Made by a program: the position numbers and the translations under genes
From: a virus
Lineage: Duplodnaviria > Heunggongvirae > Uroviricota > Caudoviricetes
DNA: 5,071 nt
Virus record (IMG/VR): IMGVR_UViG_2563366839_000004
Reading direction: 5' to 3' (one strand)
Shown here: positions 780 through 2,092 of the stretch, one piece after another
Position numbering within the stretch: position 1 is the first letter of the stretch
Layout of the letters: each line of letters starts with the position of its first letter
The notes under the pieces: model-generated
Database searches by the model: none
Seen by the model: only the letters and a program-made list of their open reading frames with translations
What the model was told of the DNA's origin: nothing

Positions 780-1451
780 TCAACGACCAATCACCACAAC
801 CTGACCACCGTCCCCCTCGTCTGCCGTGCTGATCTCCTGAGAAGCCACCCGCGACCCCACGCGCATTTCACCGTACAGAACAGGCAGAACATTGCCCTGG
901 GCAACCATGTTATCCAGTGAGGAGAAATAGGTGTTCTGCTTACCGTTATCCGTTGTCTGTGTACGGGGAGTTCTGGCTTTCGGTGCCAGCATCTGGGCCA
1001 CACCACCGAGCACCATACTGGCACCGAGAGAAAACAGGATGCCGGTCATACCACCGGCCCCAATGGCTGCCCCCCACGCTGCAAGGGTGGCTCCGGCAGT
1101 AAAGAATGATCCGGCAATGGCGGCTGCTCCCAGGACAATCTGGAATACGCCACCTGACTTGGCCCCGGCGACTCTGGGAACAATATGAATCACAGCGCCA
1201 TCAGGCAGAGTCTCATGTAACTGCGCCGTTAACCCGGACGTGCTGACGTCCCGCCCGGCAATCCGTACCTGATACCAGCCGTCGCTCAGTTTCTGACGAA
1301 ACGCCGGGATCTGCATGGCCAGCGCCCGGATGGCTTCGGCCCCCGTTTTCACACGCAGATCGATGCGGCGGCCAAATCGTTGTAAATCCCCGTAAAGGCA
1401 GATGCGTGCCATGCCTGGTGACGCCAGAGGGAGTGTGTGCGTCGCTGCCAT
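780..1451 (-). CDS. I: Tail tip assembly protein I (223 aa)
   Basis: Complete ORF, ATG at 1451 and TGA at 780..782. I recognise the translation (MAATHTLPLASPGMARICLYGD...QVVVIGR) as lambda gpI. AGAGG-type SD about 11 nt upstream. Overlaps the 3' end of K by 103 nt in a different frame. Confidence 0.9.
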   Translation of the reverse strand: MAATHTLPLASPGMARICLYGDLQRFGRRIDLRVKTGAEAIRALAMQIPAFRQKLSDGWYQVRIAGRDVSTSGLTAQLHETLPDGAVIHIVPRVAGAKSGGVFQIVLGAAAIAGSFFTAGATLAAWGAAIGAGGMTGILFSLGASMVLGGVAQMLAPKARTPRTQTTDNGKQNTYFSSLDNMVAQGNVLPVLYGEMRVGSRVASQEISTADEGDGGQVVVIGR

Positions 1452-2092
1452 TTGTCGGTGTACCTCTCTCGTTTACTCAGTTGTTCAGGAATATGGTGCA
1501 GCAGCTCACCGTCACCACAGTAAATGGCGGCATGATTCGGCACCGATGAACCAAAACAGCACAGCAGCACATCGCCCGGCTGCGCCGCTGACAACGGCAT
1601 CTGATACAGCCCTGTGGCCTCCAGATTATCCAGATAGAGATTCTGGCCGTGACGCCACCAGTCATCCTCACGATGAAAATCCGGCATCTCAATCCCCGCC
1701 AGATGGTAAGCATCCCGGAACAGCGTGTAACAGTCCGTCACACCGTGCTCAAAGCGCCGCCCGGTGAGATGCGGCACACAGCGGAACTTATGAATCGTCC
1801 CCCGGCAGACCAGCCACCAAGGCAAATCACTCTGCACCTGCAGCCGCCGGTCGGCCTCACTCAGCCAGGGCAGACCACCGGGGTGGCTGTGGACCAGCGC
1901 CACAATCTCACCCTGCATCTCTGCCTGCAGCCAGTCTTCCGGCGACATACGGAAATACGCCTCCGGCTCACCGGAGATATTCACGCAGGGAAAATATCTT
2001 TCCCCCTCCGGTGTTCTCACCACGAAGCCGCACGACTCCGCTGGCGCACATCGCCGGGCGTGCGCCAGAATCGCTGATTCTGTCTCTGTCAT
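1349..2092 (-). CDS. K: Tail tip assembly protein K (full ORF 247 aa), with JAMM/MPN+ and NlpC/P60-like peptidase motifs; alternative internal start at 1948 would give 199 aa
   Basis: ORF from ATG at 2092 (5 nt after the L stop, no SD) to the stop at 1349. Contains HSHPGGLPWLSEAD (H-x-H-x7-S-x2-D JAMM motif, residues 68-81) with an upstream E-S-C-G (E19), and downstream DCYTLF (Cys121) plus NHAAIYCGDGELLHH (His187, His199/200), typical of NlpC/P60 Cys/His peptidases. An internal in-frame ATG at 1948 (Met49) is preceded by GGAGG (1960..1964) with an 11-nt spacer. Confidence 0.88.
   Translation of the reverse strand: MTETESAILAHARRCAPAESCGFVVRTPEGERYFPCVNISGEPEAYFRMSPEDWLQAEMQGEIVALVHSHPGGLPWLSEADRRLQVQSDLPWWLVCRGTIHKFRCVPHLTGRRFEHGVTDCYTLFRDAYHLAGIEMPDFHREDDWWRHGQNLYLDNLEATGLYQMPLSAAQPGDVLLCCFGSSVPNHAAIYCGDGELLHHIPEQLSKRERYTDKWQRRTHSLWRHQAWHASAFTGIYNDLAAASICV

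Follow-up and report, generated by a model that had tools for sequence, protein, structure and literature searches.

The full-length form of lambda-type tail gene K, a predicted JAMM and NlpC/P60 peptidase, and its 199-residue annotation in reference phage lambda

The window analysed here is a 5,071-nucleotide stretch of tailed-phage DNA (Caudoviricetes; IMG/VR record IMGVR_UViG_2563366839_000004) whose minus strand encodes part of a lambda-like tail module, with the gene order H-M-L-K-I(-J), and the gene under study is gene K at positions 1349-2092. The reference record of phage lambda annotates K as a protein of 199 residues, which corresponds to residues 49-247 of the open reading frame (ORF) in the window. 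Taking the data as a whole, we consider it very likely that K is a 247-residue protein which combines a JAMM metallopeptidase and an NlpC/P60 cysteine peptidase domain and starts at the ATG at 2092, that the 199-residue version is an artefact of a gap in the reference sequence, and that K would process gpI, the product of the neighbouring gene I. An earlier note on this DNA, which was made from its letters alone, had called the start codon of K ambiguous. The start is not truly ambiguous in the window, and the ambiguity is historical rather than biological. The coordinates of all features are collected in Table 1.

Two peptidase domains in gene K

The list of ORFs in the window contains a minus-strand frame of 247 codons at 1349-2092. 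Its product matches phrog_30 ('minor tail protein', E = 3.8e-162) and the frame is placed between homologues of L and I, as is typical of a lambda-type K. The homologous prophage gene, 744 nucleotides (nt) long, is labelled by PGAP as a 'C40 family peptidase' of 247 residues, and the neighbours of K match the Pfam families Phage_min_tail, Phage_tail_L, and Lambda_tail_I. Over 1 kb around K, identity to phage lambda is ~96.4%; for the window as a whole, Escherichia coli prophages reach up to 98.3%. Judged by its sequence, the window is a prophage-type variant that is distinct from lambda itself, and 1349-2092 is an ordinary K gene as carried by lambda-like prophages, i.e., a known two-domain peptidase gene.

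By motif, profile, and predicted fold, K carries a complete JAMM/MPN+ domain with Glu19, His68, His70, Ser78, and Asp81. The five-residue JAMM motif is represented in K, where E19, H68, S69, H70, S78, and D81 are all present. On the 247-residue form, the Pfam profile Prok-JAB (PF14464) aligns over positions 4-112 of 114 with E = 3.7e-14 and 53 bits, compared to a gathering cut-off of 25 bits; on the 199-residue form it aligns over positions 63-112 only and scores 23.3 bits, which is under the cut-off. When the PDB was searched by sequence, the MPN-family entry 2KKS matched K residues 7-105 (E = 2e-05), and the alignment takes in the Glu motif and the helix at the N-terminus (AILAHARRCAPAESCGFVV in K versus EMLAHARQALPNEACGLLG). 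In the AlphaFold2 (AF2) model of K, the mean predicted local distance difference test score (pLDDT) is 80.5 and residues 1-40 reach 85-93, as do the helix formed by residues 3-15 and the strands at 20-27 and 30-36. All three belong to the core of the MPN fold and precede Met49, and a start at this codon would therefore drop them. Foldseek comparison of the model with the PDB gave Pyrococcus furiosus JAMM1 (5lda and 5ld9, alone and with the ubiquitin-like protein SAMP2), Rpn11, and CSN5 as best matches at a probability of 1.00; for PfJAMM1, E was 2e-05 and the root-mean-square deviation 2.5-2.7 A over ~107-110 alignment columns. The predicted structure of K thus has the alpha/beta fold of MPN domains, and its JAB domain is predicted to bind zinc and to act as an (iso)peptidase. 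The JAMM signature proposed in the earlier note is borne out by a Prok-JAB score above the gathering cut-off and by near-invariant motif residues. The note was also right that the shorter product loses E19 and the first part of the MPN fold, as seen from the half-length Pfam match and the AF2 model, and the JAB profile begins at residue 4 and not past Met49.

In the second half of K, an NlpC/P60 cysteine peptidase domain is fused to the JAB domain, as shown by a match to Pfam NLPC_P60 (PF00877) over the entire profile (positions 1-105 of 105; E = 1.1e-12; 48.3 bits compared to a 23-bit gathering cut-off). Foldseek relates this half to MepS, Acd33800, and clostridial autolysins. C121, H187, and H199 provide the Cys, the His, and the third polar residue of C40 peptidases in canonical order, and the distance between H187 and H199 (12) equals the His...His spacing in the aligned RipA-type and T. 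thermophilus enzymes (PDB 8idc, 4xcm). The full profile and the near-invariant triad residues agree with the NlpC/P60-like signature that the earlier note had read from the letters. Both peptidase signatures exceed by far what chance would give. Peptidase or amidase activity of this domain is predicted from sequence and model. Besides JAB and NlpC/P60, no further Pfam domain was found in K; a signal peptide or cell-wall-binding module was not noted, with no search aimed at either. On all features that could be tested, K belongs to the JAMM/MPN+, NlpC/P60, and lambda K families, and both of its activities are predicted.

From a homologue search over 1.84 billion cluster representatives, 102 full-length K homologues with less than 65% identity were taken (cited range, 26-60% identity). 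The JAMM residues are kept in nearly all of them (H68 in 100, H70 in 99, S78 in 92 with Thr in 8 more, and D81 in 99), as are those of the NlpC/P60 triad (C121 in 98, H187 and H199 in 100 each). Conservation extends upstream of Met49, which the earlier note had named as a point to check by alignment: E19 is kept in 99 homologues, C21 in 93, G22 and N38 in 100 each, and F47 in 95, and identity to K is 35.1% over residues 1-48 versus 35.6% over residues 49-110. Position 49 itself is Met in 12 homologues and Ile in 66. When codons 2-48 were compared with those of 86%-identical genes, the synonymous rate (dS) was 0.53-0.59 and the nonsynonymous rate (dN) 0.054, and dN/dS was 0.09-0.10, equal to that in the rest of the gene. 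On these values, codons 2-48 are under purifying selection. Several lines of comparison favour the 247-residue form, which is most likely the real K product.

The one-base gap in reference lambda

Alignment and string checks revealed that one G is missing between 14266 and 14267 in the reference lambda records J02459 and NC_001416; in the window, this G is the middle base of the Ala45 codon (GCG). Both records read GGAGGC-TATTTCC at this site, where the window and all other aligned sequences read GGAGGCGTATTTCC. Translated upstream of Met49 in the K frame, reference lambda meets a stop codon; without the G, the ATG at 14132 opens a dead-end frame of 76 codons, and Met49 is the first ATG in the only K frame left. 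The 199-residue annotation arose because the gap puts ATG 14132 out of frame, and later records copied the Met49 start.

The G is common to all 22 close relatives that share this stretch in the locus set, including re-sequenced lambda (PV340536.1; LC730321.1, 48,503 bp; KT232076.1). It is present in lambda imm21 and HK630, and phage 434 has a base there too, with different flanking bases. Ten lambda-contaminated assemblies of unrelated bacteria, in which K matches the long lambda ORF at 100% identity, contain the G as well. The gap was found only in J02459, NC_001416, and two derivative-looking records, OR974322.1 and OR474059.1, the latter flagged UNVERIFIED. No complete E. coli genome fits the reference stretch ungapped; the best of 4,184 matching replicons reaches 99.4%, with 161 nt aligned to 162 nt. 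These alignments show that the 199-residue annotation is an artefact of the G missing from codon 45 of the 1982 lambda sequence, and the missing base itself is most likely a reading error.

The database records reflect this history. J02459, NC_001416, HK630, and lambda imm21 give 199 residues together with a ribosome-binding site; HK630 and lambda imm21 contain the G, yet the 199-residue start was copied. A length of 247 residues is given by PGAP, for phage 434, and in a lambda record of 2025. The statement in the earlier note that reference lambda uses the 199-residue product was accurate. Its view that the start is ambiguous did not hold, as the 199 residues in reference lambda are forced by the gap and were not chosen for an ATG led by a Shine-Dalgarno (SD) sequence. 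Supplier notes on lambda cI857 Sam7 DNA presumably list an inserted base at 14266. In the literature searched, we found no explicit published statement on the K start or the reference gap.

Such copies of lambda K, many of them 100% identical, sit at loci L014-L025, L027, L029, L032, L033, L036, and L037, on short or low-coverage contigs that are filed under Neobacillus, Pseudoxanthomonas, Enterococcus, Paenibacillus, Shewanella, Bradyrhizobium, Kitasatospora, and others. They almost certainly represent contamination with lambda control DNA and were used here as independent re-sequencing of lambda. In BP-4795 (L008, NC_004813.1, coding sequence 369-1250), K is annotated as a 'putative tail fiber component' of 293 residues with a start 128 nt inside L. 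This is an over-extension, the opposite of the error in lambda, and arises because the K frame is by chance free of stops further upstream.

Translation start of K

DNA context was available for 85 distinct K-homologous genes of 26-100% identity, collected from genomes by alignment and from viral contigs with single distant proteins. All 85 have an ATG 13-21 codons 5' of the Glu19 equivalent, and its distance from the L stop is -4 to +11 nt at 55 of the 75 loci with a recognisable L. The position of the K start is unchanged at the 12 loci where a gene is inserted between L and K; at two of these (L067, L068) K is preceded by a strong SD (AAGGAGG), and the other ten show weak pairing with the anti-SD (-2.4 to -6.2 kcal/mol). 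The insert itself, found in 12 distinct loci (among L058-L068, L043, L051, and L073), is 500-870 nt long and apparently a gene. In the window, anti-SD pairing at ATG 2092 is +0.7 kcal/mol, i.e., there is no SD, and a scan of the L-K junction gave no Rfam family, promoter, terminator, or unusual RNA structure (fold z = -1.1). Because an SD and all of these elements are missing nearby, we infer that K is translated by termination-reinitiation after L. Ribosomes that end at the L stop would most likely re-initiate at the ATG five bases downstream. The GTG codons 24, 25, and 37 were tried as starts and rejected; each would delete Glu19, and they have no conserved counterpart in the homologous genes. 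The positions, residues, and both candidate starts listed in the earlier note were all found in the sequence.

K could also give rise to nested products, in which the 247-residue enzyme is accompanied by a 199-residue protein that starts at Met49 behind the GGAGG and serves as an NlpC/P60-only enzyme or a modulator. Such a short form would have neither the catalytic Glu nor the three secondary-structure elements with which the MPN domain begins. The anti-SD duplex formed by the GGAGG 11 nt upstream of ATG 1948 has -9.5 kcal/mol, compared to none at the upstream start, and ATG and SD are held in 13 of 13 distinct genes of the clade with at least 91% identity. Natural K versions with only NlpC/P60 have been reported (Iyer et al., PMC1779556), and in-frame nested starts such as S107/S105 occur elsewhere in lambda. 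However, 66 of the 85 genes have no Met49, including those of a 97%-identical prophage (CTG) and of 86%-identical phages (ATC), and ATG and strong SD occur together only in the clade with at least 91% identity (13 of 85 genes, all of its distinct members). The 86%-identical phages keep the GGAGG, and since it is kept where the Met49 codon is not ATG, conserved Pro-Glu-Ala codons can account for it. Furthermore, the 11-nt spacing is above the optimum, the site lies within a translated ORF, and half an MPN domain would be unlikely to fold. We therefore regard nested products as improbable. A minor 199-residue species that is started internally may exist in lambda-type phages but finds no support in conservation.

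Table 1. Features of gene K and its neighbours in the window
Feature	Position	Strand	Evidence or remark
Gene K, full-length ORF, 247 residues, 28.3 kDa	1349..2092	minus	ORF list; phrog_30; PGAP 744-nt homologue
Long-form start ATG	2090..2092	minus	5 nt (ATCCC) past L stop TAA 2098-2100; no SD
Internal in-frame ATG, Met49, start of legacy 199-residue annotation	1946..1948	minus	ATG in 19/85 homologous genes
GGAGG, 11 nt 5' of Met49	1960..1964	minus	inside Pro43-Glu44-Ala45 codons; -9.5 kcal/mol
G, second base of Ala45 codon GCG, missing from J02459/NC_001416	1958	minus	between lambda 14266 and 14267; alignment and string checks
JAB/MPN+ (JAMM) metallopeptidase domain, residues 4-104	1781..2083	minus	Pfam PF14464, Foldseek, PDB 2KKS, AF2
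Glu19 codon (PAESCGF), JAMM catalytic-type glutamate	2036..2038	minus	kept in 99/102 distant homologues; not in 199-residue form
Zinc-binding motif H68-S-H70-x7-S78-x2-D81, residues 68-81, HSHPGGLPWLSEAD	1850..1891	minus	sequence and conservation
NlpC/P60 (C40) papain-like cysteine peptidase domain, residues 111-224	1421..1762	minus	Pfam PF00877, Foldseek, PDB alignments
Proposed triad, C121 (TDCYTLF)	1730-1732	minus	
Proposed triad, H187 (NHAAIY)	1532-1534	minus	
Proposed triad, H199 (LLHH, H199/H200)	1496-1498	minus	
Gene L, 232 residues	2098..2796	minus	Pfam Phage_tail_L, E = 2.3e-101
Gene I, 223 residues, N-terminal ubiquitin-like domain, presumed substrate	780..1451	minus	Pfam Lambda_tail_I, residues 14-97; overlaps K 3' end by 103 nt

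Gene I and the proposed function of K

An I ORF with a ubiquitin-like (Ub-like) domain lies downstream of K at all 74 loci with enough flanking sequence. At the end of this domain, P92, G96, and [AS]97 do not vary, and G100-G101 are conserved in most cases. Processing of the Ub-like I by K was proposed by Iyer et al. (2006; PMC1779556), and following this proposal K would be a non-virion assembly enzyme whose JAB domain would cut the Ub-like N-terminal domain off I at the conserved Gly-rich end. Cleavage would free the C-terminal part of I, which would then plug the tail tip. Cryo-electron microscopy (cryo-EM) of the lambda tail tip resolved gpI from residue 101 on (PMC11101478), and other tail-tip maps only from ~134-135 onward (PMC10721106, PMC12617516). 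Mass spectrometry did not find gpK in virions, and it is missing from the cryo-EM maps as well; deletion of the K homologue of an F-pyocin gave tubes without tips. The cleavage of gpH to gpH*, which is still without an assigned protease (PMC12617516), may leave room for K. That full-length K, with its JAMM site restored, is the long-sought tail protease of lambda and removes the Ub-like domain of gpI is a tentative proposal, and a doubtful one at present.

Several points weigh against a 247-residue K that acts on gpI. The long start has no SD compared to a strong one at Met49, and some internal initiation may occur in lambda-type phages; the N-terminus of K is deduced from comparison. The missing G could in principle be a real mutation in the sequenced stock, yet K is an essential tail gene. 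The missing density for the N-terminal domain of gpI in cryo-EM is equally explained by disorder, and virion mass spectrometry reported a single gpI peptide, the position of which was not given. The literature searched yielded no published enzymatic assay for either K domain.

The start of gene I differs between annotations too, in a mirror image of the problem with K. The legacy start is the ATG at 1451 (223 residues), and PGAP and the 2025 lambda record use a GTG at 1350-1352 that overlaps the K stop (190 residues). The Ub-like Pfam profile covers positions 26-83 of 83 in the 190-residue form and 2-83 in the 223-residue form. The region of K that overlaps the start of I (residues 227-247, window 1349-1451) is poorly conserved in distant homologues, with 20.6% identity and 61% gaps, and the K-I overlap looks restricted to the lambda-like group. 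The protein database also contains L-K and K-I fusion proteins of 311-431 residues (P0011, P0013, P0024, P0030, P0032, P0038, P0043), which carry Phage_tail_L or Lambda_tail_I together with JAB and NlpC/P60 and mostly form single-member clusters. These are probably frameshift errors or decaying prophages; natural I fusions are also mentioned by Iyer et al. (2006; PMC1779556).

A different role has to be considered, in which K is a non-catalytic chaperone or scaffold of the tail tip, or its NlpC/P60 domain hydrolyses the cell wall at infection. NlpC/P60 enzymes are typically peptidoglycan endopeptidases, Foldseek matched MepS and autolysins, TIGR02219 bears the name 'putative phage cell wall peptidase', and the authors of the tail structure call the peptidoglycan-cleaving activity of lambda unidentified (PMC11101478). 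However, gpK appears in no virion mass spectrometry data or cryo-EM map and would therefore not act at infection. The catalytic residues of both domains are near-invariant across homologues of 26-60% identity, which argues against a non-catalytic role, and its constant pairing with a Ub-like protein suggests that K acts on a protein. We consider such a role quite unlikely.

Lambda gpK/TAPK (NP_040598.1, AAA96551.1) comes from the same H-M-L-K-I-J locus and shares ~96% amino-acid identity with window K over the common 199 residues (7 differences). The long ORF of re-sequenced lambda has 247 residues and the same start context; the reference record differs in that it annotates residues 49-247 only, whereas the window ORF is intact. 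With the JAB/JAMM peptidases that process ubiquitin-like proteins (PfJAMM1-SAMP2, 5LDA; PF14464), K shares the E-x(n)-H-S-H-x7-S-x2-D motif and the MPN fold, and, as in JAMM/Ub pairs, its gene is linked to that of a beta-grasp Ub-like protein with conserved Gly residues at the end. Unlike PfJAMM1, K is fused to NlpC/P60, and the Ub-like N-terminus of gpI, on which it presumably acts, is part of a linear fusion and not a conjugate. Unlike in JAMM/Ub systems, no E1-like enzyme was seen in the inspected tail-gene stretches, in which no systematic search was made. The order and spacing of Cys-His-His and the predicted papain-like fold are shared with MepS/Spr and C40 endopeptidases; unlike MepS, K is cytoplasmic and absent from virions, and its substrate would probably be a phage protein and not peptidoglycan. 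The gpK counterpart of F-type pyocins, PA0639/PyoF8, is non-structural and absent from particles, and its deletion gives tipless tubes. It belongs to a tailocin and not to a phage, and is a counterpart to K by role.

It is hardly credible that the legacy annotation is right, with 199 residues only and codons 1-48 an untranslated L-K spacer: although J02459, NC_001416, HK630, and lambda imm21 give this form with a ribosome-binding site and the long ORF is closed in the reference sequence, comparative data already contradict it, as the frame is open in every relative, dN/dS is ~0.1 in codons 2-48, E19, C21, G22, and N38 are near-invariant, most homologues have no Met49 start, and the closed frame is the one-base gap of J02459, NC_001416, and two later lambda records (one UNVERIFIED).

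A dual-peptidase K of the kind found in the window is already known from work published in 2003-2006, and 247 residues are already called by PGAP. Ambroggio et al. (2004; PMC300881) listed its JAMM motif for lambda K. Iyer et al. (2006; PMC1779556), citing Anantharaman and Aravind (2003), described the combination of JAB with NlpC/P60 and its association with the Ub-like gpI. The CDD model MPN_NLPC_P60 is cited in an annotator's note. The truncated reference entry still misleads, since a 2020 review assigns one peptidase domain only to the "199-residue gpK" (PMC7291167) and a 2025 expression screen relies on NP_040598.1 as gpK (PMC12236752). The practical value of our analysis is therefore an annotation correction: K in NC_001416/NP_040598.1 is 48 residues short, the catalytic glutamate included, and tests of K enzymology or gpI processing need cloning from the ATG five bases past L, not from Met49. 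If K does remove the Ub-like domain of gpI, the Ub-like/JAMM pair would be a built-in assembly checkpoint of siphovirus tails.

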